NCBI GenBank assembly: GCA_937880925.1
Contig: CALGGB010000312.1
Span: 60 to 64,059, forward strand
Reading direction: 5' to 3'
Source: an uncultured Rhodospirillaceae bacterium
Lineage (GTDB): Bacteria; Pseudomonadota; Alphaproteobacteria; SP197
Length of the DNA stretch: 64,000 bases
Both the position numbers and the translations under genes were made by a program. A model generated the notes under the pieces. It was not told the origin of the DNA and searched no databases. It was given only the letters and a program-made list of their open reading frames with translations. Below are positions 40,516 through 59,791 of the stretch, piece after piece. The first letter of the stretch is position 1. Each line of letters starts with the position of its first letter.

Positions 40516-42100
40516 GTCCGCTGCGAAGGTCCCGGGGCTCGACGGTTTGCCCGAGTGGCTGGCCGCCTTGGGCGGCTGGCGCCGGCTGGGCCTGGCGCTG
40601 CTGCTGGGTGTGCTTCTGGCCACGGCCATGCCGCCCTTCTACGTGCTGCCCGGCGCCATGGTGGCTCTCACAGGGTTCGTCTGGCTGCTCGACGGCGCGG
40701 CGACGGCGCGGCGGGCCTTTCTCGACGGCTGGGCTTTCGGTGCGGGCTTCAGCGGCGCGGGCCTTTACTGGATCGCAAACGCCTTGCTGGTCGATGCTGC
40801 CGCCTTTGGCTGGATGGTGCCGTTTGCCCTGCTGGCGATAGCCTTCGGGTTTGGCCTGTTCGCCGCATTTGCCGCGTGCCTGGCGCGCATCTGGCCGCGC
40901 GGCGCCGGCCGCATCCTTGCCTTTGCCGCCGCCTGGCTCATTCTGGAGTGGCTGCGAAGCTGGATTCTGACCGGGTTTCCCTGGAACCTGCTGGGTACCG
41001 CCTTGGCAGTCGCCCCGGAGTTGCTGCAGACCGCCGCCTGGGGCGGGCCGTGGCTGCTTTCGGCCCTGGTTCTGGCGGCGGCCTTGTTGCCGGCCCTGGC
41101 GGTTGGCGCGCCTGCGCCCCGCAGACGCCGGGCCATGTTTGGCGGCCTGCTCGCCAGCCTTGTCCTGCTCGCCGGGTTGTTCGGGCTGGGCGCATGGCGC
41201 ATGGCGCAGTTCCCGGCAACCTATGCGTCCGGCATCACCCTGCGGCTGGTGCAACCCGCCATCGACCAGGCGGAGAAGTGGCGCAGCACCCTGCGGGATT
41301 CGCATTTTGCGACGCATATTGATCTCAGTTTGTCGCAATCTGCAGTTGTGCCGGATCTGGTGATCTGGCCGGAGGCTGCGATTCCATGGCAACTGCTGGC
41401 CGATCCCGCCGAACGTGCACGGGCCGGCAGTGTGCTGAGAGGGGATGGCCTGCTGCTTGCCGGCGGTGTGCGTTTCGAGCGTGATGCCGGCGGCATCCCA
41501 CTTCCCTTCAACAGCCTGATCGCGCTTGACCGTGATGGCGACCCGGTCGCGTTCTACGACAAGCGCCACCTGGTGCCCTTCGGTGAATACGTTCCCCTGC
41601 GCGGCCTGCTGCCCATCGACAAGATGACCCCGGGTGCGATCGACTTCATTTCGGGCACCGGCCCGGAAGTGCTGGCGCTTGGAAAAATCCCGCCGTTTCG
41701 CCCACTTATCTGTTACGAGGTGATCTTTCCCGGAGAAATCCAGGGGCAGGCCGCGCGGCCCGACTGGCTGCTCAACATCACCAACGACGGCTGGTACGGC
41801 GTCTCCACCGGACCCTATCAGCACTTCCAGGCCGCACGGATGCGCGCCGTGGAGCAGGGCCTGCCGCTCGTGCGGGCGGCCAACAACGGCATTTCCGGCG
41901 TCATCGACCCGGTCGGCCGGGTCCTGGCGCACCTCCCGCTCAACGCCGTGGGCGTGCTCGATGCGCCCCTTCCCGCACCCCTTTCCGGCCCGACGCTCTA
42001 TGCCCGGCTGGGCGACTGGACCCTGCTTGCCGTTCTGTTTCCTGCAATCCTCCACTTGGCGTGGCGCTTGCGTTGTCTGCGACGTGAGGACGACCGGTAG
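40508..42100 (+). CDS. lnt: apolipoprotein N-acyltransferase Lnt
   Basis: N-terminal multi-TM region followed by a CN-hydrolase domain (…ICYEVIFPGE…NDGWYG…). I use the ATG at 40508, which overlaps the corC end. Confidence 0.85.
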   Translation: MPESAAKVPGLDGLPEWLAALGGWRRLGLALLLGVLLATAMPPFYVLPGAMVALTGFVWLLDGAATARRAFLDGWAFGAGFSGAGLYWIANALLVDAAAFGWMVPFALLAIAFGFGLFAAFAACLARIWPRGAGRILAFAAAWLILEWLRSWILTGFPWNLLGTALAVAPELLQTAAWGGPWLLSALVLAAALLPALAVGAPAPRRRRAMFGGLLASLVLLAGLFGLGAWRMAQFPATYASGITLRLVQPAIDQAEKWRSTLRDSHFATHIDLSLSQSAVVPDLVIWPEAAIPWQLLADPAERARAGSVLRGDGLLLAGGVRFERDAGGIPLPFNSLIALDRDGDPVAFYDKRHLVPFGEYVPLRGLLPIDKMTPGAIDFISGTGPEVLALGKIPPFRPLICYEVIFPGEIQGQAARPDWLLNITNDGWYGVSTGPYQHFQAARMRAVEQGLPLVRAANNGISGVIDPVGRVLAHLPLNAVGVLDAPLPAPLSGPTLYARLGDWTLLAVLFPAILHLAWRLRCLRREDDR

Positions 42101-42234
42101 GGCGAATTGCGCAACCGGGCGGTGCTGGCATCGCCCCATTGAATTGCGTATCGCTTCGCGCCGACGGCCAGGTGCGGGGCCGACCCGTCCGACGCAGCCG
42201 ATGAACGGGAACAGGCAAGGAAAACGGAATCATT

Positions 42235-42651
42235 ATGGCAAGCAAACCCAATCCGATCGACGTGCATGTCGGCGGCCGCGTGCGGCTTCGCCGGACCCTT
42301 CTGGGCATGAGCCAGGAGAAGCTGGCCCAGGCGCTCGGCCTGACCTTCCAGCAGATCCAGAAGTACGAGCGCGGCGCCAACCGGATCGGTTCCAGCCGCC
42401 TGTTCAAGCTGTCGCAGATCCTCGACGTGCCGGTCAGCTTCTTCTTCGACGACATGACCGCCGTCACGGCGACCGAAGGCGGGGCCACCGCCCCGGCCGA
42501 TGCGCCCGAGGATCCCTCCGGCCCCGATACCCTGACCAAGCGCGAGACTCTGGAACTGGTGCGCGCCTATTACCGCATCCCCGACGAGCGGCTGCGCCGC
42601 AAGGTCTTCGAGCTGGTCAAGGCCGCAGGCCCCAAGGACGCCGAGGCCTGA
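42235..42651 (+). CDS. XRE-family helix-turn-helix transcriptional regulator (alphaproteobacterial conserved, between lnt and metK)
   Basis: HTH block LRRTLLGMSQEKLAQALGLTFQQIQKYERGANRI and an acidic Pro-rich C-terminus. Confidence 0.7.
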   Translation: MASKPNPIDVHVGGRVRLRRTLLGMSQEKLAQALGLTFQQIQKYERGANRIGSSRLFKLSQILDVPVSFFFDDMTAVTATEGGATAPADAPEDPSGPDTLTKRETLELVRAYYRIPDERLRRKVFELVKAAGPKDAEA

Positions 42652-42654
42652 TCG

Positions 42655-42700
42655 AAAAGGGTGCTCGCGCGGGCCCAAGGGCCCGCCAACACCCCTTTTT
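42655..42700 (+). terminator. rho-independent terminator after the HTH regulator gene
   Basis: AAGGGTG…GCGGGCCCaaGGGCCCGC…CACCCCTTTTT is a nested GC hairpin followed by a T5 run. Confidence 0.7.
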
Positions 42701-42798
42701 GCCCTTGACCCGACCTTCGCCGATGGGGGAGTGTCCGGCTGTCCTTGCGCGCCCGCGCAGGGTTGAGCCGTTGTGTTTCAATGCCATGGGAGGATTGG

Positions 42799-43962
42799 GT
42801 GGCCAGGAAATCTTACCTGTTCACGAGTGAGTCGGTCTCGGAAGGCCATCCCGACAAGGTTTGCGACCGCATCAGCGATGCCGTGGTCGATGCCTATCTG
42901 GCCGCCGACCCGCACGCCCGTGTCGCCTGCGAAACCCTGACCACGACCAACCTGATCGTGATCGCCGGCGAGGTCCGCGGACCCCACGAGGTGATCGGGC
43001 GCGTCGAGGAACTGGCGCGCAATGCGGTCAAGGCGATCGGCTACGAACAGGACGGCTTCCACTGGAAGAATGCCAAGGTCCAGGTCCACCTGCACGAGCA
43101 GTCGGTCGACATCGCCCAGGGCGTGGACTCCGGCGGCAACAAGGCCGAGGGCGCCGGCGACCAGGGCATCATGTTTGGCTACGCCTGCCGCGAGACCGAG
43201 GCGCTGATGCCCGCGCCGATCCACTTCTCCCACCAGATCCTGAAGAAGCTGGCCGAGGCCCGCCACGCCGGCAAGGTCAAGCTCGGTCCCGACAGCAAGA
43301 GCCAGGTGACCCTGGAATATCACGACGGCAAGCCGGTGCGCGCGACCTCCGTGGTCGTCTCGACCCAGCACGACGAGGACCTCTCCACCGACCAGGTGCG
43401 CGAGATCGTGCGCCCCTATGTCGAGAGCGTGCTGCCCGCCGGCTGGATGTGCCCGGAGGACCGTTTCTACGTCAACCCGACCGGCCGCTTCGTCATCGGC
43501 GGCCCGGACGGCGACGCCGGCCTGACCGGACGCAAGATCATCGTCGACACCTATGGCGGTGCCGCACCCCACGGCGGCGGCGCCTTCTCGGGCAAGGACC
43601 CCTCGAAGGTCGACCGCTCGGCGGCCTATGCCTGCCGCTACCTCGCCAAGAACGTCGTTGCCGCCGGCCTGGCCGACAAGTGCACGATCCAGATCTCCTA
43701 CGCCATCGGCATTGCCGATCCGCTGTCGGTCTATGTCGACACCCATGGCACGACGCAGGTCGACGAGGCGCGCATCGAAACCACCCTGCGCGAGGTCATG
43801 GACCTGACACCGCGCGGCATCCGCAACCACCTCAGCCTCGACCGCCCGATCTACGAGCGGACCGCGGCCTATGGCCACTTCGGCCGCGCGCCCGAGGCCG
43901 ACGGCGGTTTCTCCTGGGAAAAGACGGATCTGGCCGACGCGCTCAAGAGCGCGCTCGCCTAG
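42799..43962 (+). CDS. metK: S-adenosylmethionine synthetase MetK
   Basis: GTG start giving (M)[32 protein letters not shown] and DTYGG motifs are present. Confidence 0.9.
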
Positions 43963-43971
43963 AGGCTTTTC

Positions 43972-44694
43972 ATGAACGACCGGCCGCATCCGCCCACGGT
44001 CGATGCCCGCGGGCAGGATCGGCGTGTCTATGGCCGCCGCAAGGGCCATGACCTGACGCCCCGGCGCCAGGGTCTGGTCGATGACCTGCTGCCCCGGTTG
44101 CGCCCCGAGATCGGCGCCGACGGCAGCGTCGATCTCAAGGGCCCGGTCGCCGGGCGCGACCGGTTGTGGCTGGAGATCGGCTTTGGCGGCGGCGAGCACC
44201 TGGCCTGGCAGGCTGCCGCCAATCCCGATGTCACCGTGATCGGCGCCGAACCCTATCTCAACGGTGTGGCCAGCCTGCTCGCCACGGTCGATGACGACAG
44301 GCTTGCCAACGTGCGCATCATCGATGACGACGTGCGGCCCCTTCTGGAAAGCCTGGCCCCGGCGTCGCTTGAACGCATCTTCGTGCTCTTCCCCGATCCC
44401 TGGCCCAAGGCGCGCCATCACAAGCGGCGCATCGTGAACACCTGGACCACCGAGCGTTTCGCCGAGCTGCTGGTCGATGGCGGCGAGCTGCGCCTGGGCA
44501 CCGACATCATGGACTATGCGCGCTGGATGATGGCGACGGTCTGGCCCCATCCCGCCTTTGCCTGGACCGCGCGCCGCCCGGGCGACTGGAAGAACCGGCC
44601 CGACGACTGGCCGGGCACGCGCTACGAGGCCAAGGCGCGCAAGGCCGGCCGCACGCCCGTGTTCATGACCTTCCGGCGCAAGCCGCGGGCCTGA
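43972..44694 (+). CDS. trmB: tRNA (guanine46-N7)-methyltransferase TrmB
   Basis: EIGFGGGEH SAM-binding motif and LFPDPWPKARHHKRR. Confidence 0.9.
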   Translation: MNDRPHPPTVDARGQDRRVYGRRKGHDLTPRRQGLVDDLLPRLRPEIGADGSVDLKGPVAGRDRLWLEIGFGGGEHLAWQAAANPDVTVIGAEPYLNGVASLLATVDDDRLANVRIIDDDVRPLLESLAPASLERIFVLFPDPWPKARHHKRRIVNTWTTERFAELLVDGGELRLGTDIMDYARWMMATVWPHPAFAWTARRPGDWKNRPDDWPGTRYEAKARKAGRTPVFMTFRRKPRA

Positions 44695-44710
44695 AGCCGG
44701 GCAGCCGAAC

Positions 44711-45595
44711 TCAGCTCTGTGCCGACTTCCTGACCACCCAGCGCGGCCGGAAGGAGCGCGCCTGGGTGATCTGGGCAAGGAAGGCGGGCAGCGAGCCGGT
44801 CTCCCAGAGATGGCCGAGCGGGCTGTGGTCCTTCACGCCCGGGATCGGCAGCGTCTGGGCGCCGAGAATTCCTGCAAAATGCTCGGCTTGAACGCGGTCG
44901 ATCCTGTGGTCGCGGGTATAGACGAAGACGATCTCTGGATGGTTGGCCGTGCAGCAGGCGCAGATCGGGTCGTAGGCATGGGCCGGGCCGTCGCCCTCCA
45001 GCAAACGCGTCACGTCCCAGGCGGCCCGGCCACCGATGCAGATCGTGCGGTTGGCCCCGGCCATCAGACCGAACCAGACCGACGGCAGGCCGCCCATGCT
45101 GGCGCCGATGGCAACCACGCGCTTGTAGCTGGCGGCAGGAAAATCCCGCTGCACGGCGGCGACGAGGCCCGGGAAGTCCTTCCCATAACCCGGCAGGCCG
45201 CCGCGGAAATGGTGCTTGGCGGGATCCGCCAGGATCAGGATATCGAAGGATTCCGGCGCCAGGCACTGCACGAAACCGACATTGGGGATCATCAGCCGGC
45301 CCAGCCGGCCGGCAAAGCCCACCAGCAGGGTCTTGGCCGCACTGGGATAGGCGGGATCGCTGAACAGCAGGACATCGGCCGCAATCCGGTTGCGCTGGAA
45401 GCTGCGCGGTTCCTGGCCCGCCATCCTGCGGGTGACGCTGCGCCTGGCGTAGGCCGCGGCCAACTCGGGATCGTCCAGGCGACGGCCCAGTTCGGCGTAT
45501 TCCATCGGCGTCAGCATGTCCTCGATCTGGTTGAAGACCATGCCGCGGCGCCGGGATTCGGCCCCGGTCAGGCGCTCAAGCGCCAGATCAAGCAT
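44711..45595 (-). CDS. alpha/beta-hydrolase-fold protein (putative thioesterase/hydrolase), last gene of the ACP-P450 operon
   Basis: GxSxG nucleophile elbow (VVAIGASMGGL). It overlaps the upstream ACP gene by 8 nt. There is no closer family assignment. Confidence 0.45.
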   Translation of the reverse strand: MLDLALERLTGAESRRRGMVFNQIEDMLTPMEYAELGRRLDDPELAAAYARRSVTRRMAGQEPRSFQRNRIAADVLLFSDPAYPSAAKTLLVGFAGRLGRLMIPNVGFVQCLAPESFDILILADPAKHHFRGGLPGYGKDFPGLVAAVQRDFPAASYKRVVAIGASMGGLPSVWFGLMAGANRTICIGGRAAWDVTRLLEGDGPAHAYDPICACCTANHPEIVFVYTRDHRIDRVQAEHFAGILGAQTLPIPGVKDHSPLGHLWETGSLPAFLAQITQARSFRPRWVVRKSAQS

Positions 45596-45869
45596 CGGCG
45601 CGGTTCGCCGCGATGTAACCGACCAGGCCGTCGAGCGTCTCCAGTTCGGGCAGCAGTTCAGGATCGAGTTCGATGCCGACGGCCTCCTCGATCTCCATCA
45701 GCACTTCCAGGGTCGAAAGGCTGTCGAGTTCCAGGTCGGCAAAGACGATCACGCGCTCGGGCTCGTCGCGCAGGCGGGCATAGGCCGGGTCGTTGAGCAG
45801 TCCGATGGAGCGGTGCAGCGCCTCGATCGCGAGCAATCGGATGGCCGGGCGGTCGAGCGTTGCGGTCAC
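45588..45869 (-). CDS. acyl carrier protein (discrete, non-AcpP)
   Basis: 93 aa, acidic, with the phosphopantetheine attachment motif DLELDSLSTLEV. Confidence 0.75.
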   Translation of the reverse strand: MTATLDRPAIRLLAIEALHRSIGLLNDPAYARLRDEPERVIVFADLELDSLSTLEVLMEIEEAVGIELDPELLPELETLDGLVGYIAANRADA

Positions 45870-46891
45870 GGGCAGACCTCCAGGTCAAGGCGGGCGGGAA
45901 TGGCGAAGATGTCGTCGACGCGGGCCTGGCAATCCAGCGCGCCCACGGTGGTGGGCAGACCGCGCAGATAGAGACCGATCGCGGCCCAGGCCTCCAGCGC
46001 GATCGGGCGGCCAAGACAGGTATGCGCACCGGCGCCGAAGAACTGGGCGCGCTCACGCGGGTCGGCGGTCTCCCCGAAGGCACGCAGCATGATGCGCACC
46101 CGGTCCCCGGGCGCCAGCGTCAGACCCTCCACGATCGCGGACTCGTGCGCCATACGCTCGATGTAGGGCACACCCGTGGAGGAGGGCAGATCGGGCCAGT
46201 CGAGCGCGGCGAAAGGCATCCCCTGCCCCGCCGCCAGCACGTCGCGCAGGCTGTAGGCCAGGGTGCCGGTGAGCGCATCGCGCCCCAGGATCATCATGGC
46301 GAGCTTCTGGCCGACATCGGCCTGGTCGCTGACGCCGGATGCCTCGATCCGGGCGCGCGGGGCGGCAACCTCGGCCTCGGCGCGCTTGCGCTTGGCGATG
46401 CCCATGCCGCGGCTGAAGATGCGCGAGATCAGGGAATCGGCATCGAAGCCGGTGTCCGCCACGGCAATCAGCGCACCCATGAAATCGGCGACGAAGGGCT
46501 CCACCGCCTGCGCCATCAGCTCCACCTGGCCGGGCTGCCCAAGACAACCGAAATGCAGGGCGACCCGCTCCGCCATGGTCGAGAGCACGGCGCTGCGTCG
46601 CCGCGCGAGCTGGCCCGCGATCGCCTTGCGCGCGTTCGCATGCTGAGGTCCGTGCAGGCACAACGGGATGTGGCCGAAGGCCAGGCGCAGGTTGGAGAAA
46701 TCCAGCCCGAAGCGCTCCTCAAGCTCGCCATAGAGTTCGACATAGGGCGGCGGGCTGAGCGAACCATGGGTCAGGAAGGCCCGGCAGGCGGCCGCCTCAT
46801 CGACGACCCACGCACCGAGCCTTGCGTCCCAGGTCGCCGCCTCGCCTTGCTTATCCTCGATGACACTCACCTGTTCACCCCACGCACCCAA
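45866..46891 (-). CDS. cytochrome P450 family protein (short, ~341 aa)
   Basis: C-terminal Cys-pocket FGAGAHTCLG (FxxGxHxCxG) and an ExxR-like K-helix. It is ~60 aa shorter than typical P450s. Its stop overlaps the ACP start (ATGA). Confidence 0.65.
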   Translation of the reverse strand: MGAWGEQVSVIEDKQGEAATWDARLGAWVVDEAAACRAFLTHGSLSPPPYVELYGELEERFGLDFSNLRLAFGHIPLCLHGPQHANARKAIAGQLARRRSAVLSTMAERVALHFGCLGQPGQVELMAQAVEPFVADFMGALIAVADTGFDADSLISRIFSRGMGIAKRKRAEAEVAAPRARIEASGVSDQADVGQKLAMMILGRDALTGTLAYSLRDVLAAGQGMPFAALDWPDLPSSTGVPYIERMAHESAIVEGLTLAPGDRVRIMLRAFGETADPRERAQFFGAGAHTCLGRPIALEAWAAIGLYLRGLPTTVGALDCQARVDDIFAIPARLDLEVCP

Positions 46892-46979
46892 CGGCTGCTG
46901 TCAGGTGCCCTAGAGCGGATCACGATTCCGCAGAAAGATGATTTGCTCTAGGCCAATCTCGGCAGGATAGCAGGGGGAG

Positions 46980-47849
46980 TCAAACGCGCTCTGCCAGCGT
47001 GGCGCGTGCGGTCATCGCTAGTCCGCCCTGCGGCGTCTCCGCCCAGAGTTCCAGTTCGCCCGCCCCGGCGGGCTTGCCGCGCAGCACGAAGGGCGCGGTA
47101 TCGAACAGCGGCGCCACCGCGCGGAAGGAAAAAGCCGCCAGCGTCCGGCCGCCGCCATGCTCCAGCGCCAGGTCGGCGAGCAGGGTGGCGGTCAGCGGGC
47201 CGTGGAAGACGAGGCCGGGATAACCCTCGACATCGCGGCAGTAGTCGCGGTCGTAGTGGATGCGGTGGCCGTTGAAGGTGAGCGCGGAGTAGCGGAACAG
47301 CAGCACCGGCGAGGGTGTCACCGTGCGGGAGAAGACGGCATCGCCCGGGGGCGCCTGGGGTACGAGCGCCGGTGCACCTGGTGCCGGGTCCTCGCGATAG
47401 ACGATGTCGTGCTCCTCCCAGAAGCGTTCGGCGCCATCGGGGCCGGCAAGGCCGTGGCGCACGGTGACGAAACACAGGGCACCGGTGCGGCCGTGTTTGA
47501 CGGTGACATCGCGGATCGTGGAGTGGCGCATGACCGCCTCGCCCAGACGCAGCGGCGCCGAGAAACCAAAACGTCCTCCGGCCCACATGCGCCGGGGCAG
47601 GTCGACTGGCGGCAGGAATCCGCCGCGCCGGGCATGGCCGTCGCGGCCCAGACCGGAAAGCGCGACCGCCTCGTTGAAGTAGATCCAGTGCCACAGCGGC
47701 GGCAGGGCATCGCCCTCGGCGGGCTCCTGCCTGTGATCGAGCGTCGCGGCCATGCGCCGTGCCTGGCCCACGGCCAGAACATCCTGGTGCCTCTCGCTGC
47801 GCCCGATCCAGCCGCGCAGGACCTCCTCATCGGTCGTGGAAGTATTCAT
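46980..47849 (-). CDS. MaoC-family hot-dog (R)-hydratase/dehydratase (FAS1-like dehydratase N-domain + MaoC domain)
   Basis: PLWHWIYF…WAGGRF in the N-terminal half. The C-terminal half is hot-dog-like (…FHGPLTATLLADLA…). Confidence 0.55.
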   Translation of the reverse strand: MNTSTTDEEVLRGWIGRSERHQDVLAVGQARRMAATLDHRQEPAEGDALPPLWHWIYFNEAVALSGLGRDGHARRGGFLPPVDLPRRMWAGGRFGFSAPLRLGEAVMRHSTIRDVTVKHGRTGALCFVTVRHGLAGPDGAERFWEEHDIVYREDPAPGAPALVPQAPPGDAVFSRTVTPSPVLLFRYSALTFNGHRIHYDRDYCRDVEGYPGLVFHGPLTATLLADLALEHGGGRTLAAFSFRAVAPLFDTAPFVLRGKPAGAGELELWAETPQGGLAMTARATLAERV

Positions 47850-49177
47850 CGGCCTGGCCCTTCCATCAGGTCACGGAACCGGAAGGCCAGCGTGGCATCG
47901 CCGTGCAGCAACAGTGCCAGCAGGCGCGCATCACCGCCGCAATCAAGGAACTTTGCACCCACAGCATCGCTGTCCATCGGCTTGGCAAGACCGCCGCGGA
48001 CATCGGCGATGGTGGCGCTCGTTGTGCTGCCGTCGGCCATGGTCAGGCTGACGCTGTCGGGATGGGCCGGGCTCATGTCCTCCAACTCGCCATCCACCGT
48101 GTAGGCATCGATCGCAAGGCGCGTCATCAGGCCGCGCACGCGATTGTCGCGCAGCGCCTCCTCCTCGAAGGTCGCGGGCCCGATGGTCCCATGGACCAGG
48201 GCAGCGGCAACGCAGTAACGCACGCTGAAGCGGGCCTGCGCCGCGTTCCGGGGATCGAGGAAGCCGGCGACGCGGAAGAACGGTTCGGGCAGGGCGATGG
48301 TGCCTGCATGAACCGCCCCGGCATCAAAACCCGGTGCGGCGGCAAGCTGCAGGGCCGCCTCGATGGCGCGATGGGTGTAGGCGCAACTTGGCCAGGGCTT
48401 GCGCAGGGCCGGATCGGTCTCCATCGCACTGGGGCCGCAGGGCATGGCCGACCCACCCGCGCCATAGAGCGCCAGGAAGCCGTGCGGTCCCTCGCCCAGG
48501 GTGGCGTTGGCACTGACACCGGCCTCGACCAGCAGGGCCGCCTCCAGGCCGGCGCGGGCCGCAAGACCGGCATGAACCGGCTTGGCATGGCTGCCGAACT
48601 GCAGCTTCAGCCCGCCCGAGGAACTGCTCGCCAGGGCGAGCGCCATGGCGGTCTGCGCACCATCCAGCCCGAGCAGGCGCGCGGCCCCGGCGGCCGCACC
48701 GATCGGCCCGATGGTCGCGGTGGCGTGCCAGCCCGCCAGGTAGTGGTTGTAGCCGCCCAGCGCGCGGCCGCAGCAGACGATGGCGTCGTAGCCCGCCAGA
48801 TAGGCCGCCAGCAGCGAACCCAGGGAAACCTGGCGCAGGTTCGAAAGCGCCATCAGGCCGGGCACGATGGGTGCGCTGGGATGGGTCGAGCCGGGGATTT
48901 CATAATCGTCAAAATCCAGCACATGGGCCGCCGCGCCGTTGACCAGCGCCGCGGCACCGGCGGCAAGCGTTACGCCCGGCACGATGGTCGCGGCCGGGCC
49001 GCCGGCACCCGAGCGCGCCATGGCCTGCGCGATCACGCCGGGAAGCGGGTCGCTGCGCGCCGCCAGCATGCAGGCCAGCGTGTCGATGAGGCAAAGGCGC
49101 GCCTGCAACACGGCTTCGGGCACCGACGCCAGGCTCGCCACACGCGCGCCCAGCGCGGCAAAGAACGGTTCGCTCAT
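47846..49177 (-). CDS. MmgE/PrpD family protein (2-methylcitrate dehydratase-like)
   Basis: 443 aa with the MmgE/PrpD N-terminal motif (…LCLIDTLACMLAARSDP…). It overlaps the MaoC gene by 4 nt. Confidence 0.75.
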   Translation of the reverse strand: MSEPFFAALGARVASLASVPEAVLQARLCLIDTLACMLAARSDPLPGVIAQAMARSGAGGPAATIVPGVTLAAGAAALVNGAAAHVLDFDDYEIPGSTHPSAPIVPGLMALSNLRQVSLGSLLAAYLAGYDAIVCCGRALGGYNHYLAGWHATATIGPIGAAAGAARLLGLDGAQTAMALALASSSSGGLKLQFGSHAKPVHAGLAARAGLEAALLVEAGVSANATLGEGPHGFLALYGAGGSAMPCGPSAMETDPALRKPWPSCAYTHRAIEAALQLAAAPGFDAGAVHAGTIALPEPFFRVAGFLDPRNAAQARFSVRYCVAAALVHGTIGPATFEEEALRDNRVRGLMTRLAIDAYTVDGELEDMSPAHPDSVSLTMADGSTTSATIADVRGGLAKPMDSDAVGAKFLDCGGDARLLALLLHGDATLAFRFRDLMEGPGR

Positions 49178-49193
49178 GCTCTTTCCCTAAACT

Positions 49194-50201
49194 CTAGCGC
49201 GGGGCGGCGGCACGCGGCTTGCGCTGGGCCTTCATGATGCGCGCTGTTGCTTCTGGCGTCCCATCGTGAAAGCTGCCCGCCCAGAGATCGCCCGGAACGA
49301 CGCCGGTGCCGTAGTTGCAGTTGAAGTAACGATGATGGAGCTGGTGGTAGTAGCTCGCCAGATCGATCACCTTGCGCCCCTTCACCTGAAGATCGGCAAA
49401 GCCGATGTGGCTGGTGATACCACCCAGCACCAGGTGGTTGAAGAGATAGAACATGTGGATCGGGTGGCTGACGATCACCAGGTGGATAAGCGTGCTGCTG
49501 AAATAGAGCAGGTGTTCCAGCGGGTGCATGGCAAGGCCCGACCAGGGCCCGACCGCGATGTTCTTGTGGTGGATGGCGTGTGCAAAGCGATAGAGCGGCG
49601 GCCAGTGTAGCAGCCGGTGGATGAGGTAGAAGTGCGCCGATTCCCAGAGGTACAGCAGGGGAAAGAGCGCGGCGAACCACAACGGATTCGCCGCCCAGCC
49701 CAGCAGCGGCGTAAGGCCGGACGCCCAGGCCCAGAGTAGCAGGCATTGCAGGCTCGTCCAAAGGACGACACCGCTTGCCAGCGTCAGGAACATGTTGTCG
49801 AGGACCTGGTCGCGCCACAGGAACTTCGTGTCGTCGCGGGCAAGATCACGCCCGGAATAGCGGTGGTGGCTGCCCTGGCGCCCCAGGGTGTGGAAGTAGA
49901 GGTGCAGGCCGCCGGCGTAGGCAATCGTCAGCCCCAGATTGAGCGCCAGCAGGTGCAGCATCCAGCCGGGCGCAAGGCTCGCACAATCGGTGAGATCCGG
50001 TGCGAGCCAGAACCAGATGACCAGCGCCAGGCCAACATAGAGCGCCTCCAGCGACAGGACATAACCCCGGCCCAGCAACCAGGTGAGCGCGGCCAGAGGC
50101 CGCGGCGGCCAGGAAAGGAACCCTGGTCCCGGCGTGATGGGGACATCAGGCTGGAAGGCCCAGGCGGGGGCAGTGGGGGCGGACGGCTTGGCGCGCTTCA
50201 T
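49194..50201 (-). CDS. fatty acid hydroxylase / sterol desaturase superfamily membrane protein
   Basis: His boxes HRLLHW, HAIHH and HQLHHRY, plus TM helices. I use the ATG at 50201 (MKRAKPSAPT); the upstream extension of the ORF is Ser/Arg-rich and unsupported. Confidence 0.7.
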   Translation of the reverse strand: MKRAKPSAPTAPAWAFQPDVPITPGPGFLSWPPRPLAALTWLLGRGYVLSLEALYVGLALVIWFWLAPDLTDCASLAPGWMLHLLALNLGLTIAYAGGLHLYFHTLGRQGSHHRYSGRDLARDDTKFLWRDQVLDNMFLTLASGVVLWTSLQCLLLWAWASGLTPLLGWAANPLWFAALFPLLYLWESAHFYLIHRLLHWPPLYRFAHAIHHKNIAVGPWSGLAMHPLEHLLYFSSTLIHLVIVSHPIHMFYLFNHLVLGGITSHIGFADLQVKGRKVIDLASYYHQLHHRYFNCNYGTGVVPGDLWAGSFHDGTPEATARIMKAQRKPRAAAPR

Positions 50202-50310
50202 CGTGCAATGCTCCAGGGTGCCCGGCTTGTCCGGGCATCGCAGCATTCTGTGACCGGCCATGGCTTCTTGACCATGCATGGAATTCTGATGATCGTCATT
50301 CCCCGGAGGA

Positions 50311-51240
50311 ATGACGGTGCGCCCCAAACTGCCTTCCCTGCCTGCTCTTGCCGCCTTCGAGGCGGCGGTGCGCCATGGTTCCTTCACGCTGGCCGCGCGC
50401 GAACGCAACGTGCAGCAGCCCGCGATCAGCCGGCGCATCGCCGAGCTGGAAGACGAACTGGGGGTCACCCTGTTTGATCGTACCCGTCCGAACCTGCGCC
50501 TGACCGCCGACGGCGAACGTCTGGCTGCCGCGGTCGGCCACGGCCTGGGTCACATCGCGCAGGCGGTCGCCCTGATTCGCGAGCGCGGCGCGCGGCCCGG
50601 TCTGGTGGTCGACGTCACCATCGGCTTTGCCAGTTGCTGGCTGCTGGCGCGTATGGCGGGCTTCCGGGCCCTCTATCCCGACATCGAGATTCAGGTCACG
50701 ACCCGCGACGGCAACCGCGCCTTCGATGCCGAGCGCAGCGACGTCATCGTGCTGTTCAGCGATGACGAGGAACCGGGCGCCATCAACCGCAAGATTTTCG
50801 GCGAGACCCTGTTTCCGGTCGCCAGCCCGGCACTGGACACGGCAGGCCCGGCCATGACGCCGGACGACCTGCTGCAATCGCGCCTGCTCTTCCTGCGCGA
50901 TCGCATGCACGGCGGCGACTGGGCCCTGCTGCTGGAGGACAAGGGGTTGGCCGCCCCGGCGCCGCAGGCCGACGCCGAGTTCAACAGCTACATCGTCTAT
51001 CTGCAGGCGATCCTCAACGGCGAGGGTATCGGGCTGGGCTGGTCACACCTGATGGACGACCTGCTGGCCGCCGGGCGGCTGCAGCGTGTCGGCACCCTGG
51101 CGCGCACGACGCCGCGCGGCTACGTCTGCGTTCTGCCCGCAGGCAGGACGCCGCGCCCGGAGGCGCTTGCCTTTGTCGACTGGGTGACCGCGCAGGCCGG
51201 GGCGGCCACGTCAGCGGTCAGGGCTCCAGGAAGCCCATGA
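50311..51240 (+). CDS. LysR family transcriptional regulator, divergent from the hydroxylase operon
   Basis: LysR HTH ([40 protein letters not shown]) plus a substrate-binding domain. Confidence 0.85.
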
Positions 51241-52210
51241 TCTCCTCGACCTGCTTCTGGATCGGCTCGGCGATGGCGCGCGCCCGTTCGGCGCCGTCGC
51301 GCAGCACGCCGTCAACGTAAGCAGGATCGCCCATCAGGCGCTTCATCTCCTCGCCGATCGGGCCGAGCTTCTCGACCGCAAGGTCGGTGAGTTCGCCCTT
51401 GAAGGCACTGAACTGGGCATCGGCGAACTTCTCGACCACGGCCTGGCGCGTGCTGTCGGCAAGGGCGGCGTAGATGGTGATCAGGTTGGCCGCCTCGGGG
51501 CGGTTCTCCTGATCGTAGGTGACGCCGGGTTCGCTGTCGGTGCGCGCCTTGCGGAACTTCTGGGCGATGGCGTCGCGCCCGTCGGTGAGGTTGATGCGCG
51601 AATACTCGCTGACATCGGACTTCGACATCTTCTTGGTGCCGTCGCGCAGCGACATGACGCGCGTCGCCTCGCCCGTGATCACGGGCTCGGGCAGGGGGAA
51701 GAACTCCGCGCCGTACTGGCGGTTGAAGGCGCCGGCGATGTCGCGCGCCAGTTCCAGATGCTGCTTCTGGTCCTCGCCCACGGGGACGTGGGTGGCGTGA
51801 TAACCTAGGATGTCGGCGGCCATCAGCACGGGATAGCCGTAAAGCCCCAGGCTCGCCTGATCCTTCTGCTTGCCGGCCTTCTCCTTGAACTGGGTCATGC
51901 GGTTGAGCCAGCCCAGCGGCGTCAGGCATGAGAGCATCCAGGCAAGCTGGCTGTGCATGCGCACGCGGCTCTGGTTGAAGATGACGCAGCGTTTGGGGTC
52001 AAGGCCCGCGGCAAGGAAACCCGCGGTCACTTCGCGCGTGGCGCGGCGCAGTTCGTCGGGCTCGTAGGGCAGCGTGATCGCGTGCAGATCGACGATGCAG
52101 TAGATGCCCTCGAAATCGTCCTGCATGGCCACGAAGCGCTTCAACGCCCCGAGGTAATTGCCAAGGTGCAGGTTGCCGGTCGGCTGGATGCCGGAAAAGA
52201 CCCGGTTCAT
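51218..52210 (-). CDS. trpS: tryptophan--tRNA ligase TrpS
   Basis: [21 protein letters not shown] (HIGH motif region) and KMSKS (KMSKSD). Start is the ATG at 52210; the gene is 331 aa. Confidence 0.9.
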
Positions 52211-52323
52211 GTCTGGCTCCGTTGCGCGATGGCGCGCGTGATCAGGTGTGGGAAGGCGCGCGTCATCAGGTCCGCGATGGCGGGCGTTATCGTATGCGCC
52301 CGGTGGACGGTCAAGCAGGCCGC

Positions 52324-53001
52324 TCAGGCCAAGGGCGGGCGGCGACCGAAGATCGCCGTGCCGACGCGGACATGGGTCGCACCGAAGGCGACGGCCACGG
52401 CATAGTCGCCCGACATGCCCATGGAAAGCTGGACGAGATCGTTGCGCCTGGCGATCTCCGCCAGCAGGGCAAAGTGGTGGCTGGGTTCCTCTTCCACCGG
52501 GGGGATGCACATCAGGCCGACGACATTGAGCCCGGCCTCCCGCGCCGCCGCCACCAGGGCGTCGGTCTCCTCGGGCAGGCAGCCGGCCTTCTGGGGCTCC
52601 TCTCCAGTGTTGACCTGGACGAAGCAGGCGGGATGACGGTCCTGCTTCTCCACCTCCTTGGCCAGTGCCTTGACCAACTTCTCACGGTCGATGCTCTCGA
52701 TGACATCGAAGAGCGCGACGGCTTCCCTGGCCTTGTTGGTCTGCAGCGGGCCGATCAGGTGGAGCTCGATATCGGGAAAGCGCGCCTTCAGCGCCGGCCA
52801 CTTGGCCTCGGCCTCCTGCACGCGGTTCTCGCCGAAGACACGCTGGCCGGCTTCCAGAGCGGGGAGGATGCGTTCGGCCTCATGGGTCTTGGAGACCGCG
52901 ACCAGCGTCACGGCATCGCCATCGCGGCCGGCATCGCGCGCGGCCTGCGCGATCTCGGCCTGTACGGCGGCAAGGTTTTCGGCGACGTCCTGATTGCTCA
53001 T
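52324..53001 (-). CDS. yggS: YggS family pyridoxal-phosphate homeostasis protein
   Basis: The PLP-lysine region [13 protein letters not shown] and the overall YggS/PROSC pattern. Its ATG overlaps the stop of the last sulfotransferase gene (ATGA). Confidence 0.85.
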
Positions 53002-53834
53002 GCTTCCTCGTCCAGATAGCCAAAGCGGCGCATTACCGCGCCGTGGTCGGCCTCGATGCGTGCGCGCTGCTTGTCGCTGAGGATAGCGCGCCAGCCGCCC
53101 GAACGTCCCTTGCGGAAGAACTTCTCCTGCTTTTCCGAACGCTCGCCGAAGCCCTTGCGGCTTTCCTGGCGCGTCAGCTTGTCGAAGGCGGTGTTCTCGA
53201 TCGCTTTCCTGACCACCGAGGCCGGCACATCCAGATGGAGGAAGGTCACGACCTGGCCGAAGGTCTGCTTGGGCCGGGCGAGCATGTCCTCGTAGCGCAC
53301 ATGGGTCACCGTCGCGCCCTCCTGAGCCGTCCAGCTCGAGACGTGCTGCGACCAGGTGCCGAGGAACTCCGCCACGCCCTTGTCCCCGACCTCGGTCATG
53401 GCGTCGGCCGTCGCCATGCTCTCGATCGTGGAGTCGATGGTGACGCCCAGGTGATCGGCATAGGAGACCACGACGTCGCGCGGGTCGCGCACGATGTAGA
53501 TCGCGCCCAGGGTGAGATCGGGATCGTGACTGGGCGTGCCCGAGAGGCCCGTGAGCATGGAGTGGGTCTTGACCAGCACGGTGCCGGGTCTGCTTTCGGC
53601 CATGGCGCGCTGCACGCGCGGGCGCAGGCGCACCACATCCTCGGCGTCCATCTCCTCCCAGGGTTTGGTAAGGAAAGGTTCGTAGTAGCGCCGCCCGGCA
53701 TCCATCATCGCGGTCCTGGAGATGGCGTTGAGATCGAGCGGTCCGCCGCGGTCATGGATGACGTTGTGCAGGAAGGCGCGCATCCAGGTGTTGCCGGATT
53801 TGGGATAACTCGCCAGCCAGAGAATCTTGCCCAT
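52998..53834 (-). CDS. PAPS-dependent sulfotransferase family protein, paralog 1 of 10 (subtype B)
   Basis: Starts MGKILWLASYPKSGNTW (5'-PSB motif) and has a VKTH catalytic His, IVRDPRDV (3'-PB) and FFRKGRSGGWR. Start is the internal Met of ORF 52998..53930, overlapping the stop of paralog 2 (TGATG). Confidence 0.85.
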   Translation of the reverse strand: MGKILWLASYPKSGNTWMRAFLHNVIHDRGGPLDLNAISRTAMMDAGRRYYEPFLTKPWEEMDAEDVVRLRPRVQRAMAESRPGTVLVKTHSMLTGLSGTPSHDPDLTLGAIYIVRDPRDVVVSYADHLGVTIDSTIESMATADAMTEVGDKGVAEFLGTWSQHVSSWTAQEGATVTHVRYEDMLARPKQTFGQVVTFLHLDVPASVVRKAIENTAFDKLTRQESRKGFGERSEKQEKFFRKGRSGGWRAILSDKQRARIEADHGAVMRRFGYLDEEA

Positions 53835-54670
53835 CACACAGCCTCGGGCAGGTAGCCGAAACGCGCCATCTGCTGGCCGTGGCGATCGATGATGCGCTGG
53901 GCCTGTTCGCTCGTGAGGTCGCGGCGCCATGCGCCAACCCCGCCGCCCCCGAAAAAACGCCTCTTCTCGCTGGCACTCTCGACAAACCCCTCCTCGCGCT
54001 CCTGGTCGCGCAGGTTTTCGATATCGCTGTGGGCAATGGCACGCTCAAGCCGTTCGGACGGCACATCCAGGCCCAGGAATCGGGTCAGGCCGCCGAAGGC
54101 GGCGACCGGGTCGGCGACCATGTCCTCGTAGCGCATGACATGGATGCGGGGATGGGGTTGCTGCGTCCAGCTCTTCACGTTCTGCGACCAGCCGCCCTGG
54201 AGATAGGGAAACACATCGCGGAAACGTTTGGTCACGTAGTCCTTGCGCGCCATCACCTCGATCGTCTGGTCGATGGTCGTGCCGTTGTGCCGGGCATAGG
54301 ACTGGGCGACATCCAGCGGATTGCGCACGATGTAGATCGCGCCCGAGAGCACATCCTGGGCAAACGGCGGCACGCCTTCCCAGGGCAGCAATGCGGCATG
54401 GGTCTTCATGAAGATGGTGTCGGGACCCAGCCCCGCGACATGGCGCTGGGCGGCATGGCGCAGGCGCGCGACATGTTCGTAGGACCAGGTGCTGTCGTCG
54501 CTGTCATCGACCGCGCGGTACCATTCGCCTGCGGTGTCGCCGGTCGAGAGCTTGCCGATCTCGGCCAGCGGCACGGGTTCCTTGCTGTTGGTGAACAGGT
54601 TGACGAGGAAGATCCGCGTCCAGGTGTTGCCCGATTTCGGGTAGCTGGCCAGCATCAGAAGATTGCCCAT
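53834..54670 (-). CDS. PAPS-dependent sulfotransferase family protein, paralog 2 of 10 (subtype A)
   Basis: MGNLLMLASYPKSGNTW, MKTHAAL, IVRNPLDV, FFGGGGVGAWRRDL, C-terminal MARFGYLPEAV. Confidence 0.85.
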   Translation of the reverse strand: MGNLLMLASYPKSGNTWTRIFLVNLFTNSKEPVPLAEIGKLSTGDTAGEWYRAVDDSDDSTWSYEHVARLRHAAQRHVAGLGPDTIFMKTHAALLPWEGVPPFAQDVLSGAIYIVRNPLDVAQSYARHNGTTIDQTIEVMARKDYVTKRFRDVFPYLQGGWSQNVKSWTQQPHPRIHVMRYEDMVADPVAAFGGLTRFLGLDVPSERLERAIAHSDIENLRDQEREEGFVESASEKRRFFGGGGVGAWRRDLTSEQAQRIIDRHGQQMARFGYLPEAV

Positions 54671-54679
54671 GGTCGGCTC

Positions 54680-55516
54680 CTAACGCTCCCCGGGAAGGTA
54701 GTCGAAGCGCGCCATCTGCTCGCCATGGCTCTTCACGATGGCATCGACCTGCGCCGCGCTCAGGGCCTCGCGCCAGCCGCCGGCACGGCCGGAGCGGAAG
54801 AATCGATCCTGTGCCGGCGTGCGCTCGACGAACCCTGCCCTGGCCTCCATCGCGGCGACCTTGTCGAAGGCGGCGTTGTCAGCCGCCCTGCGCACGCTCG
54901 CCTCGTCGGTCTCGATACGCATGAAGCGGGCAAGGGCAAGGAAGCTTCCGGCCGGGTCGGCCAGCATGTCTTCGTAACGCATGACATGGAGCTGGGGTGA
55001 GGCCTGGGTCGTCCAGCTTGCGACATGCTGGGACCAGGAACCCATGACCTCGTTGACATTGGTGGCGTTGGTCGGCGTGCGGAACATGCTCTGGCCCATC
55101 AGCGCGATAATGGCGTCGATCTCCACGCCCTGGTGATGGGCATAGGAGACCGCGACATCAAGCGGATTGCGCACGACATAGATCGCGCCGTGGCTGACCG
55201 CCATGTTGATCGACGGCACGCCGTGGTCGCGCACGAAGGCGCTGTGGGTCTTGACCGGAACGATGCCGGGGCCGGTGGCGGCGATGCGCTCCTGAACCTT
55301 GGGGCGCATGCGCGCGATCTCGGCCGGGCTCCATTGCTGCCAGGGTCGCCGATCGACAAGCGCGAACCCCGCCGTGCCCGGTTCGGCGAGCGTTGCCTCC
55401 CCGACCCGGTTGATGTCGACCGGTGCGCCATCGCCCTTCAGCAGATTGGCAAGGAAGATGCGGACCCAGGTGTTGCCCGACTTGGGGTAGCTGGCGAGCC
55501 AGAGAATGCGTCCCAT
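54680..55516 (-). CDS. PAPS-dependent sulfotransferase family protein, paralog 3 of 10 (subtype B)
   Basis: MGRILWLASYPKSGNTW, VKTHSAF, VVRNPLDV, FFRSGRAGGWR, C-terminal MARFDYLPGER. Confidence 0.85.
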   Translation of the reverse strand: MGRILWLASYPKSGNTWVRIFLANLLKGDGAPVDINRVGEATLAEPGTAGFALVDRRPWQQWSPAEIARMRPKVQERIAATGPGIVPVKTHSAFVRDHGVPSINMAVSHGAIYVVRNPLDVAVSYAHHQGVEIDAIIALMGQSMFRTPTNATNVNEVMGSWSQHVASWTTQASPQLHVMRYEDMLADPAGSFLALARFMRIETDEASVRRAADNAAFDKVAAMEARAGFVERTPAQDRFFRSGRAGGWREALSAAQVDAIVKSHGEQMARFDYLPGER

Positions 55517-55518
55517 GG

Positions 55519-56379
55519 CTACCAGCCCTCCGGCACGTAGCCGAAGCGGGTCATCTGCGCCCGGTGGCGCGCAACGATGGCGCGGGCCTCTGCCTCGGGC
55601 AGGTCGCGCTTCCAGGCATCGACGCCGCCACGTCCGAAGAAGGCCTGCTCACCCCCCTTGCCGAACAGGTTCTTCGTACCGCTGCGGCCGAACTCGCCGT
55701 CGCGCGTTTCCAGTTCCTTGAGCACCGGCAGTGCGCTGTTGGCAAGCGCCCGCTCGAAGCGTTCTCCAGTCGCCTCAAGCCCCAGGAACCGGCAGATGCC
55801 GCCGAAGCCCTCCTGAGGCTTCGCCACTATGTCCTCGTAACGCACGACATGAAGGCGGGGATGGGGCTTTGCGGTCCAGCTCGCGACATGCTGGGACCAG
55901 CCGCCCAGGAGATACTCCACCTCATCGGCCGAACGCGTGAGCATGAAATCGCGCGTGCCCATGGTTTCGACCATGCGCGCGGTGGCGACCTTGCTGTGGC
56001 GGGCATAGGACGGCGCCACGTCGAGCGGGTTGCGCACGATGCAGATGGCGCCGGCCATCAGTTTGGGCGCGAACGGCGGCAGTCCCGCCATCGGCAACAG
56101 TGCGGCATGGGTCTTCATGAAGGCGGTATCGGGCACCATGCCGGCAATATTCTCCTGCACCCGGTGGCGCATCGCGGCGACCTCGCCGGTGGTCCAGGCG
56201 GAGGGATCGCGCGCGTCAAGCTGGCGGTACCAGACCATGGCGACGTCGGAGGCCGAAAAGCGGCTGGCCTCCGAAGGCAGGATCGGCTCGGAGCGGTTGG
56301 CAAACAGGTTGGCAAGGAAGATGCGAAGCCAGGTGTTGCCGGACTTGGGGTAGCTCGCGAGATAGACGATGGCCGACAT
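55519..56379 (-). CDS. PAPS-dependent sulfotransferase family protein, paralog 4 of 10 (subtype A)
   Basis: MSAIVYLASYPKSGNTW, MKTHAAL, IVRNPLDV, FFGRGGVDAWKRDL, C-terminal MTRFGYVPEGW. Confidence 0.85.
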   Translation of the reverse strand: MSAIVYLASYPKSGNTWLRIFLANLFANRSEPILPSEASRFSASDVAMVWYRQLDARDPSAWTTGEVAAMRHRVQENIAGMVPDTAFMKTHAALLPMAGLPPFAPKLMAGAICIVRNPLDVAPSYARHSKVATARMVETMGTRDFMLTRSADEVEYLLGGWSQHVASWTAKPHPRLHVVRYEDIVAKPQEGFGGICRFLGLEATGERFERALANSALPVLKELETRDGEFGRSGTKNLFGKGGEQAFFGRGGVDAWKRDLPEAEARAIVARHRAQMTRFGYVPEGW

Positions 56380-56388
56380 GGCGACAGC

Positions 56389-57225: not shown

Positions 57226-57228
57226 GGT

Positions 57229-58065: not shown

Positions 58066-58067
58066 GA

Positions 58068-59752: not shown

Positions 59753-59791
59753 GGCCCGGCCCCCCGCACGCGCGGTGATCGCTGCGACACC

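Follow-up and report, generated by a model that had tools for sequence, protein, structure and literature searches.

Gene content of the locus

The DNA studied here, which we call the window, is a 64,000-nucleotide stretch from an uncultured Rhodospirillaceae bacterium (contig CALGGB010000312.1). Between positions 44,711 and 51,240 it carries six genes on the minus strand and a divergent gene for a LysR-family regulator. Three of the six form a compact cassette encoding a mini cytochrome P450, a dedicated acyl carrier protein (ACP), and a Ser-Asp-His protein that resembles alpha/beta hydrolases. A preliminary description of this region had taken all six genes for one operon serving one pathway. 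Comparison with relatives points instead to three separable units that adjoin one another in a variable slot between trpS and trmB, a reading to which we assign a probability of about 0.85.

All seven open reading frames (ORFs) were present where the preliminary description had placed them and on the same strands, with a GC content at third codon positions (GC3) of 0.82–0.85 in the frame of each. These values and the codon-position GC pattern indicate that the seven ORFs look like real genes; the GC content of the sequence is 68%. The features are listed below, with protein lengths in amino acids (aa).

45866..46891, minus strand: mini cytochrome P450, 341 aa from TTG 46891, more likely 334 aa from GTG 46870
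45588..45869, minus strand: dedicated acyl carrier protein, 93 aa (PF00550, 4e-08)
44711..45595, minus strand: Ser-Asp-His protein, 294 aa, resembling alpha/beta hydrolases in its conserved residues, without a Pfam or NCBIfam match
46955..46983, minus strand: promoter-like element TTGACT-N17-GAGATT, recognised by conservation upstream of the P450 gene
46980..47849, minus strand: itaconyl-CoA hydratase-like double hot-dog hydratase, 289 aa, neighbour module (PDB 8KHG/8HUC; Pfam FAS1_DH_region)
47846..49177, minus strand: MmgE/PrpD-family protein, 443 aa, neighbour module (Pfam N and C domains)
49194..50279, minus strand: membrane di-iron protein of the fatty-acid hydroxylase/desaturase superfamily (PF04116), 335 aa from 50201 or 361 aa from 50279
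50311..51240, plus strand: divergent LysR-family regulator, GcvA-like (HTH_1 and LysR_substrate)

A Pfam screen of the window proteins (reporting limit E ≤ 0.1) bore out much of the earlier domain identification, returning PP-binding, MmgE_PrpD, FA_hydroxylase, FAS1_DH_region, and LysR assignments; it gave no match for the P450 or the hydrolase. The overlaps of 4–8 nucleotides (nt) that had been claimed for the gene junctions exist at three of the five, namely PrpD/MaoC (4 nt, 47846|47849), P450/ACP (4 nt, 45866|45869), and ACP/hydrolase (8 nt, 45588|45595). The other two junctions are gaps. A 16-nt gap (49178–49193) containing a good ribosome-binding site, GGGAAAGAG, separates the fatty-acid hydroxylase and PrpD genes, and 88 nt lie between the MaoC and P450 genes, or 109 nt if the P450 starts at the conserved GTG at 46870. 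The hydroxylase start in the gene call of the Joint Genome Institute (JGI) is 50279, not 50201.

Three separable units in a variable slot

The window matches a JGI metagenome contig, and three close relatives share its backbone and differ exactly in this block. Their gene orders, with the identity of the P450-like protein to that of the window, are as follows.

Window (100%): trpS, LysR (divergent), hydroxylase, PrpD, MaoC, P450-ACP-hydrolase
L007 (83%): trpS, PrpD, MaoC, opposite-strand GNAT gene, P450-ACP-hydrolase; LysR and hydroxylase absent
L037/L038 (79–80%): sulfotransferase array, yggS, trpS, P450-ACP-hydrolase, trmB, metK; LysR, hydroxylase, PrpD, and MaoC absent

Four genes are missing in L037/L038, and the GNAT gene splits the block in L007. 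The LysR gene was found only together with the hydroxylase gene, both being absent from L007, L037, and L038. None of the LysR, hydroxylase, PrpD, and MaoC genes was found in the 20+ distant cassette loci, where only the cassette is kept. The neighbourhood comparison thus associates the P450, ACP, and hydrolase genes with one another and leaves the other four outside. We assign the LysR and di-iron hydroxylase genes to unit 1, the MmgE/PrpD gene and the itaconyl-CoA hydratase homologue to unit 2, and the autonomous three-gene cassette to unit 3, with the same confidence as the division itself. The six-gene block is a lineage-specific juxtaposition, not one pathway or obligate operon.

The region preceding the P450 gene behaves as part of the cassette. 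About 110 nt before this gene align among the window, L037, and L007, whatever gene lies upstream. In the window, TTGACT (46983–46978) overlaps the MaoC stop codon and is followed, after a 17-nt spacer, by GAGATT (46960–46955). A promoter scan with the E. coli consensus found none and did not score TTGACT-N17-GAGATT. Judging from this conservation, the cassette evidently carries its own putative promoter-like upstream region. The same alignment bears on the start of the P450: TTG 46891 is disrupted in L037, while GTG 46870, 7 codons downstream, is conserved and preceded by a GGGGTGAA/GGAGTGGA motif. Because the GTG is conserved and the TTG is not, the protein probably starts at the GTG and has 334 aa, which fits the 334-aa relatives.

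Distribution of the cassette

The conserved unit has the order P450-like gene, ACP gene, Ser-Asp-His gene, with overlaps of 4 and 8 nt that recur in unrelated genomes. A scan of one genome per species (185,579 species genomes) found 23 loci of the P450 family, a count that is a lower bound from a peptide-pattern scan, and a metagenome scan added about 40 further loci. The named hosts are all Alphaproteobacteria. They include Rhodobacterales (Seohaeicola, Citreimonas, Palleronia, Pseudorhodobacter), Hyphomicrobiales (Prosthecomicrobium hirschii, Devosia, Bauldia, and a Bradyrhizobium metagenome-assembled genome (MAG)), Geminicoccaceae, and Sphingomonadales. One further locus, L013, lies on a 272-kb contig (CAVXNU010000021.1) of a MAG labelled 'uncultured Bacillaceae'. 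Since its cassette and flanks are organised as in an alphaproteobacterial MAG of the same study (L009/L003), this label is probably wrong.

Profile searches placed an ACP gene within 2 kb of the P450-like gene in all 23 genome loci, and in 30 of the 40 metagenome loci; in 6 of the other 10 the locus is interrupted at or close to the end of its contig. Members of the Ser-Asp-His family were found in 18 of the 23 genome loci. Both associations proposed in the preliminary description, the functional link of the ACP with the P450 and the membership of the GxSxG protein beside the two, are therefore upheld. In Sphingomonadales and other distant variants (L026–L029, L066, L068, L071, L074) the gene order is rearranged and the association kept, either as P450, hydrolase, and an opposite-strand ACP gene or as ACP, P450, and hydrolase. 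All-against-all clustering of the neighbouring ORFs at 25 loci yielded no recurrent family beyond the three cassette genes. Across Alphaproteobacteria the three genes are inherited as a set, with their translation coupled. A literature search for this gene trio returned nothing specific.

Two observations concern the ACP/hydrolase overlap. ACP-hydrolase fusions (P0050, P0110) were left out of the evidence, since a frameshift error at the 8-nt overlap could have produced them. At 45561–45629 of the window, a sub-threshold match to the Rfam family naRNA4 (25.7 bits against a gathering threshold of 59.5; E 0.22) was taken as chance.

The carrier protein and its Ser-Asp-His partner

The carrier is of the ACP type. 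It matched PF00550 (PP-binding) at 4e-08, and its best NCBIfam matches were all acyl carrier proteins. The phosphopantetheine site reads LE(L/V/I)DSL, with D49-S50-L51 invariant among orthologues. When the ACP profile was compared with the PDB, all 60 listed matches were ACPs and none was a peptidyl carrier protein (PCP). Because the profile matches are of this type, an acyl or similar carboxylic acid appears more likely as cargo than an amino acid.

The 294-aa protein had no Pfam match at E ≤ 0.1 and no NCBIfam match. It contains G164-A-S166-M-G168, D233, and H257, as well as a CxC motif at 212/214. Among 64 diverse members of its family, G164, S166, G168, and D233 are each shared by at least 90%, and H257 by all; 60 of the 64 have no Pfam match. 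Word-indexed searches had returned only 12–13 close relatives, and the family was revealed by an exhaustive profile search, which found 1,976 representative clusters at E ≤ 1e-3 and 284 at ≤ 1e-30. The profile matches to PDB entries were marginal (E 0.012–0.03, the best at 0.012–0.019), all of them alpha/beta hydrolases aligned at the nucleophile elbow. The designation 'alpha/beta hydrolase' given earlier thus stands as to the conserved GxSxG…D…H pattern; it finds no Pfam match, and solved alpha/beta hydrolases match only marginally. We regard the protein as a predicted alpha/beta-hydrolase-like enzyme of a family outside Pfam.

The contexts of this family, which adjoins a carrier protein in most of those sampled, bear on its role. 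In L010, L035/36, and L039–41 the third gene is replaced by a condensation domain fused C-terminally to the carrier, with HHxxxDG intact; by analogy with nonribosomal peptide synthetase (NRPS) logic, a condensation domain after a carrier occupies the donor-carrier position. In L025 the replacement is an ordinary Abhydrolase_1 protein. A downstream fragment in L012, thioesterase-like by eye and without a Pfam match, was not counted.

Dedicated ligases occur in some of these contexts. In the Devosia-like locus L042 (3146–5983; also L043, L044, and L064), a second operon diverges from the P450 cassette and encodes an AMP-binding ligase (542 aa, fatty-acid-CoA-ligase-like), an ACP paralogue, and a Ser-Asp-His paralogue; the ligase is a candidate loader. 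An AMP-binding gene adjoins the cassette only in L042–44 and L064, and an adenylation domain is missing from the window cassette and from most loci. In L083/84 two Ser-Asp-His paralogues stand beside an 84-aa carrier, a formyltransferase-like gene, and an AMP-binding ligase. The order in L083 (578–5803) is the 84-aa carrier, a 237-aa paralogue, a Formyl_trans_N protein, a 72-aa ORF, a 292-aa family member, and the AMP-binding ligase. Since a ligase is also present, the Ser-Asp-His protein is not the loader in L042–44, L064, and L083/84.

Because the family persists beside a dedicated loader and interchanges with off-loading domains, the third protein would remove or transfer the carrier cargo, as a thioesterase or acyltransferase. 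The main alternative is that the protein is itself the loader, an acyltransferase that primes holo-ACP from acyl-CoA, a lipid, or another carrier and so makes the cassette self-sufficient. Such a role would account for a cassette that has no other candidate loader and for a family that adjoins carrier proteins, and alpha/beta-hydrolase-type aminoacyl/acyl shuttles of the CmaE/SyrC type do exist. However, the gene comes after that of the ACP, the place where thioesterase and condensation domains are also found; a condensation domain in a donor-side carrier-condensation (T-C) arrangement replaces it in some loci, and it persists beside AMP-binding ligases. We consider a loading role unlikely, though it deserves to be taken seriously, and proceed with off-loading as the preferred role.

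A mini-P450 without the K-helix signature

The 341-aa P450 had no Pfam match at E ≤ 0.1, PF00067 included, and no NCBIfam match. A word-indexed search found 41 homologue clusters of 305–358 aa, none with a Pfam domain, and single-sequence searches retrieved P450s only marginally. With a family profile, 183 PDB sequences matched at E ≤ 0.01 (best 7e-11), and all 60 listed were P450s. An AlphaFold2 model from the single sequence was unusable (pLDDT, the predicted local confidence score, 45.8) and was redone with a 35-sequence alignment, giving a pLDDT of 91.3 and a predicted template modelling (TM) score of 0.88. Foldseek comparison of this model with the PDB returned 1,423 matches at E ≤ 0.001; all 50 listed were P450s, with TM-scores of 0.6–0.7.

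The heme-binding elements are retained. Across the 35 sequences the heme-thiolate loop FFGAGAHxCLGR is invariant at F285, G286, G288, H290, Cys292, and G294. H84 and R88 of the C-helix, R246, and H290 are invariant as well, and by comparison with P450cam we take these four to be the heme-propionate and thiolate positions. In the I-helix, which reads G203-R-D205-A, neither G203 nor D205 varies; D205 is followed by Ala in most members and by Thr in a few (L031, for example, has GKDTT).

The elements that are missing lie elsewhere. The K-helix ExxR motif, part of the ERR triad, was not found, and the family alignment contains no invariant Glu anywhere. The model has no helix between the I-helix (190–221) and the strand at 243, and only one long helix where the F and G helices would be. 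Alignment with a normal-length P450 by hhalign placed a 9-residue deletion exactly over the K-helix CLEEVLRF, deletions of 7 and 6 residues in the meander, and deletions of 12 and 13 in the F/G region. Based on the sequence family and the model, the mini-P450 is a real P450-fold protein and is predicted to be of a functional heme-thiolate type. The FGAGAHTCLG heme loop and the short length (341 aa) pointed out in the preliminary description are both genuine, the loop being invariant and the length a conserved trait across the family. An N-terminally truncated pseudogene is ruled out by the family-wide length conservation, the invariant residues, and the confident model.

To our knowledge, the smallest characterised P450s have about 350–370 aa, and a literature search for ExxR-less or minimal P450s returned nothing specific. 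Full-length P450s of the CYP157 type have a degenerate ExxR and likewise depart from this otherwise near-universal signature, but there the motif is substituted, whereas in the mini-P450 the K-helix segment itself is deleted. A survey of Proteobacteria passed only proteins with both ExxR and CXG on to family assignment and treated short proteins without both as fragments (PMC9148083). Because it lacks ExxR, the mini-P450 family would go unclassified under that rule.

At L079 (4776–7014), a normal-length P450 of 383 aa that keeps ExxR (ECLR) and has the same type of loop, FGAGAHLCLGR, is divergent from a gene of the Ser-Asp-His family and lies beside a radical SAM/SPASM gene. It may be a full-length relative of the mini-P450 lineage. 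Since this full-length protein adjoins that family, its position suggests that the mini form arose by pruning in a lineage already associated with the Ser-Asp-His family.

The losses raise the alternative that the mini-P450 is not a monooxygenase at all and serves as a heme-dependent non-redox enzyme, a peroxygenase, or a non-catalytic carrier-binding partner. The absence of ExxR, the shortened meander, the replacement of the I-helix Thr by Ala in most members, and the lack of a redox partner in the cassette would all agree with this. Against it, neither the Cys loop nor any of the heme-propionate-type residues varies, the model of the P450 fold has high confidence, and D-T-T is kept in the I-helix of some members (L031). 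P450eryF likewise lacks the I-helix Thr, and for bacterial class I P450s it is common that the redox partners are encoded elsewhere. We judge the alternative improbable and retain the mini-P450 as a predicted oxygenating enzyme.

The neighbouring units

In unit 2, the protein described as MaoC matched itaconyl-CoA hydratase (PDB 8KHG/8HUC) at E 1.5e-73 over residues 8–277. In Pfam it matched FAS1_DH_region (8.6e-10), and its match to MaoC was below threshold. The PrpD protein matched MmgE_PrpD_N (6e-45) and MmgE_PrpD_C (1e-24). Among proteins of known structure, IDS epimerase (2e-46) and IRG1/cis-aconitate decarboxylase are closest to it, and its NCBIfam scores lie far under the 2-methylcitrate dehydratase cut-offs.

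The preliminary description had found the PrpD/MmgE member unexpected in its context. Its presence is explained by its overlapping partner, a homologue of itaconyl-CoA hydratase, and not by the ACP or the P450. The pairing of ich with an MmgE/PrpD gene is known from itaconate/methylsuccinate clusters (ich, mmgE/prpD, mcd, ict, ccl), where the MmgE/PrpD protein is an (S)-(R)-methylsuccinate isomerase (PMC12290011). The overlapping genes of the window resemble this pairing. They differ in that the ict, ccl, and mcd neighbours are not found here and that the nearest solved relative of the PrpD protein is IDS epimerase: no CoA transferase (ict), citramalyl-CoA lyase (ccl), or acyl-CoA dehydrogenase (mcd) occurs among the gene calls of L004 from the sulfotransferase genes to metK (window ~41,100–56,900). 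Judged by homology, the pair would at most be a fragment or variant of C5-dicarboxylate (itaconate/methylsuccinate) metabolism.

In unit 1, the hydroxylase matched FA_hydroxylase (PF04116, 8.5e-16) and has His boxes HxxxxH, HAIHH, and HQLHH in its sequence; it had no NCBIfam or PDB match. Its gene is a lineage-specific insert. The LysR protein matched Pfam HTH_1 and LysR_substrate, and the NCBIfam models for GcvA and for the choline-sulfate regulator matched it below their cut-offs. Between the LysR start (50311) and the upstream-most hydroxylase start (50279) lies an inverted repeat, GGAAT-N13-ATTCC (50280–50302), which may be a LysR-type binding site.

These assignments bear on the model of the preliminary description, a single LysR-controlled operon whose six gene products together oxidatively tailor or cleave an acyl-ACP-bound lipid. 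The layout lends itself to such a view: the genes lie on the same strand throughout, the gaps are short (16 and 88–109 nt), and a LysR gene diverges upstream. The gaps also contain no terminator-like site; such sites were found only within genes, in a number near that of shuffled controls (5 against 2.9 expected). Nevertheless, in relatives with 79–83% identity the four extra genes are partly or wholly missing, or a gene on the opposite strand interrupts the block, and more than 20 distant cassette loci lack the extra genes. The upstream region of the cassette is conserved in its own right, and the hydratase homologue acts on CoA esters of C5 dicarboxylates. Characterised MmgE/PrpD enzymes use free C4-dicarboxylate-type acids (PMC12290011). 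The single-operon model is therefore very improbable, and the division into three units is preferred.

Proposed function and relation to known systems

We propose that the cassette is an uncharacterised variant of carrier-protein-dependent P450 tailoring, with an atypical P450 and a partner from an unclassified family. A carboxylic acid, probably an acyl chain, would be thioesterified to holo-ACP by an enzyme encoded elsewhere, which could be an adenylating ligase, as found beside the cassette in Devosia-like genomes, or a fatty-acid synthase. The mini-P450 would then oxidise the substrate while it is tethered to the ACP. Going by the secondary structure of the model, its reduced F/G lid may give a docked carrier access to the active site. 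Finally, the Ser-Asp-His protein would free the carrier of its product, either through hydrolysis or by passing it on to an acceptor. We give this sequence of tethering, oxidation, and off-loading about even odds.

Several points weigh against the scheme. A P450 without ExxR and the meander part of the ERR triad might bind heme poorly or be a non-oxygenase, and most members have Ala after D205 in place of the I-helix Thr. The third protein matches solved hydrolases only marginally, which leaves its alpha/beta-hydrolase fold tentative. Two loci (L016, L019) contain only the P450 and ACP genes, with neither hydrolase nor condensation domain. The cassette encodes no loading enzyme, phosphopantetheinyl transferase (PPTase), or ferredoxin/reductase, and no recurrent loader, redox partner, PPTase, or bio genes were found at the 25 loci; the pathway as read is therefore incomplete. 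As for the autonomy of the cassette, read-through from the upstream genes is possible in this organism, because no terminator-like site lies between the genes.

The closest known system is the trio of Bhp thioesterase, BpsD A-T protein, and OxyD P450 for beta-hydroxytyrosine, in which the substrate is oxidised while tethered and then released (PMC11727664). By analogy, the cassette is likewise a small operon for a P450, a carrier protein, and an alpha/beta-hydrolase-type enzyme whose releasing activity is predicted here. It differs in that its carrier is free-standing, without an adenylation domain, and of the ACP rather than the PCP type; its P450 is 50–90 residues shorter and lacks ExxR; its hydrolase comes from a family without Pfam membership; and its hosts are Alphaproteobacteria, in which it is not embedded in an antibiotic gene cluster. 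NikQ/NikP1/NikP2 and NovI/NovH are also off-line carrier-protein tailoring systems. The glycopeptide Oxy P450s, which a condensation-like X domain recruits (PDB 6M7L, for example), offer a parallel to the variant of the cassette in which a mini-P450 is paired with a T-C didomain, since P450, carrier, and condensation fold come together in both. Chain A of 6M7L was among the best matches of the P450 profile and chain B among those of the T-C protein. In contrast to the X domain, the condensation domain of the cassette variant keeps the catalytic HHxxxDG; no multi-module NRPS is present, and the carrier is ACP-like.

The comparison with P450 BioI (CYP107H1) made in the preliminary description is reasonable at the level of analogy, given the P450-ACP adjacency and the occurrence of BioI-ACP complexes (3EJB, 3EJE) among the structural matches; BioI is a P450 that takes an ACP-tethered acyl chain. 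BioI, however, is full-length (404 aa in the PDB), uses the housekeeping ACP, and sits in a bio operon, whereas the cassette has an ACP of its own and no bio genes nearby, and its P450 is related to BioI in sequence at superfamily level only. That the cassette itself follows a BioI-like route, in which the P450 cleaves a long acyl-ACP to pimeloyl-ACP for biotin and the hydrolase acts like BioH, is scarcely credible: the BioI-ACP complexes have the lowest root-mean-square deviation in the list of matches, the carrier is of the ACP type, and BioH-type enzymes are Ser-Asp-His hydrolases, yet about 25 neighbourhoods contain no bio genes, the cassette is rare and patchy (at least 23 loci among 185,579 species genomes), the hydrolase has no Pfam match to the BioH or BioG families, and hundreds of other P450s resemble the cassette P450 at least as closely as BioI does.

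These findings would matter beyond this locus. ExxR is treated as a defining P450 signature, and a conserved, confidently folded family without it would show how far the P450 core can shrink; a mini-P450 would also give a compact scaffold with a carrier-presented substrate. A role for the Ser-Asp-His family, with its 1,976 representative clusters and no Pfam home, would annotate many genes. The block also cautions against reading same-strand gene runs as pathways, as three close relatives sufficed to split it into three units. More tentatively, and in a reading that we hold to be less likely than not, the mini-P450s (305–350 aa, with a pruned F/G lid and no K-helix/ExxR) would be a previously unrecognised structural class of heme-thiolate enzyme, specialised exclusively for substrates on a dedicated ACP, which together with the Ser-Asp-His family makes an oxidised metabolite in Alphaproteobacteria. 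This metabolite might be a hydroxylated acyl product that is sulfated by neighbouring sulfotransferases in this lineage and in a Devosia MAG.

The sulfotransferase genes themselves lie at 52998–61488 of the window, on the minus strand, as ten tandem paralogues of 278–311 aa with 38–59% mutual identity. Their N-terminal motif is SYPKSGNTW in nine of the ten and SYQKSGNTW in the tenth, and at least five are called Sulfotransfer_1 by JGI. Parts of the array also occur in L037/L038 and L007. In the Devosia MAG (L024:3–983), the cassette is immediately preceded on its own strand by a Sulfotransfer_1 gene (5.6e-25), with ~100 nt between them. Together with the array of the window, this gene arrangement hints at a link of hydroxylation followed by sulfation, seen only in these lineages.

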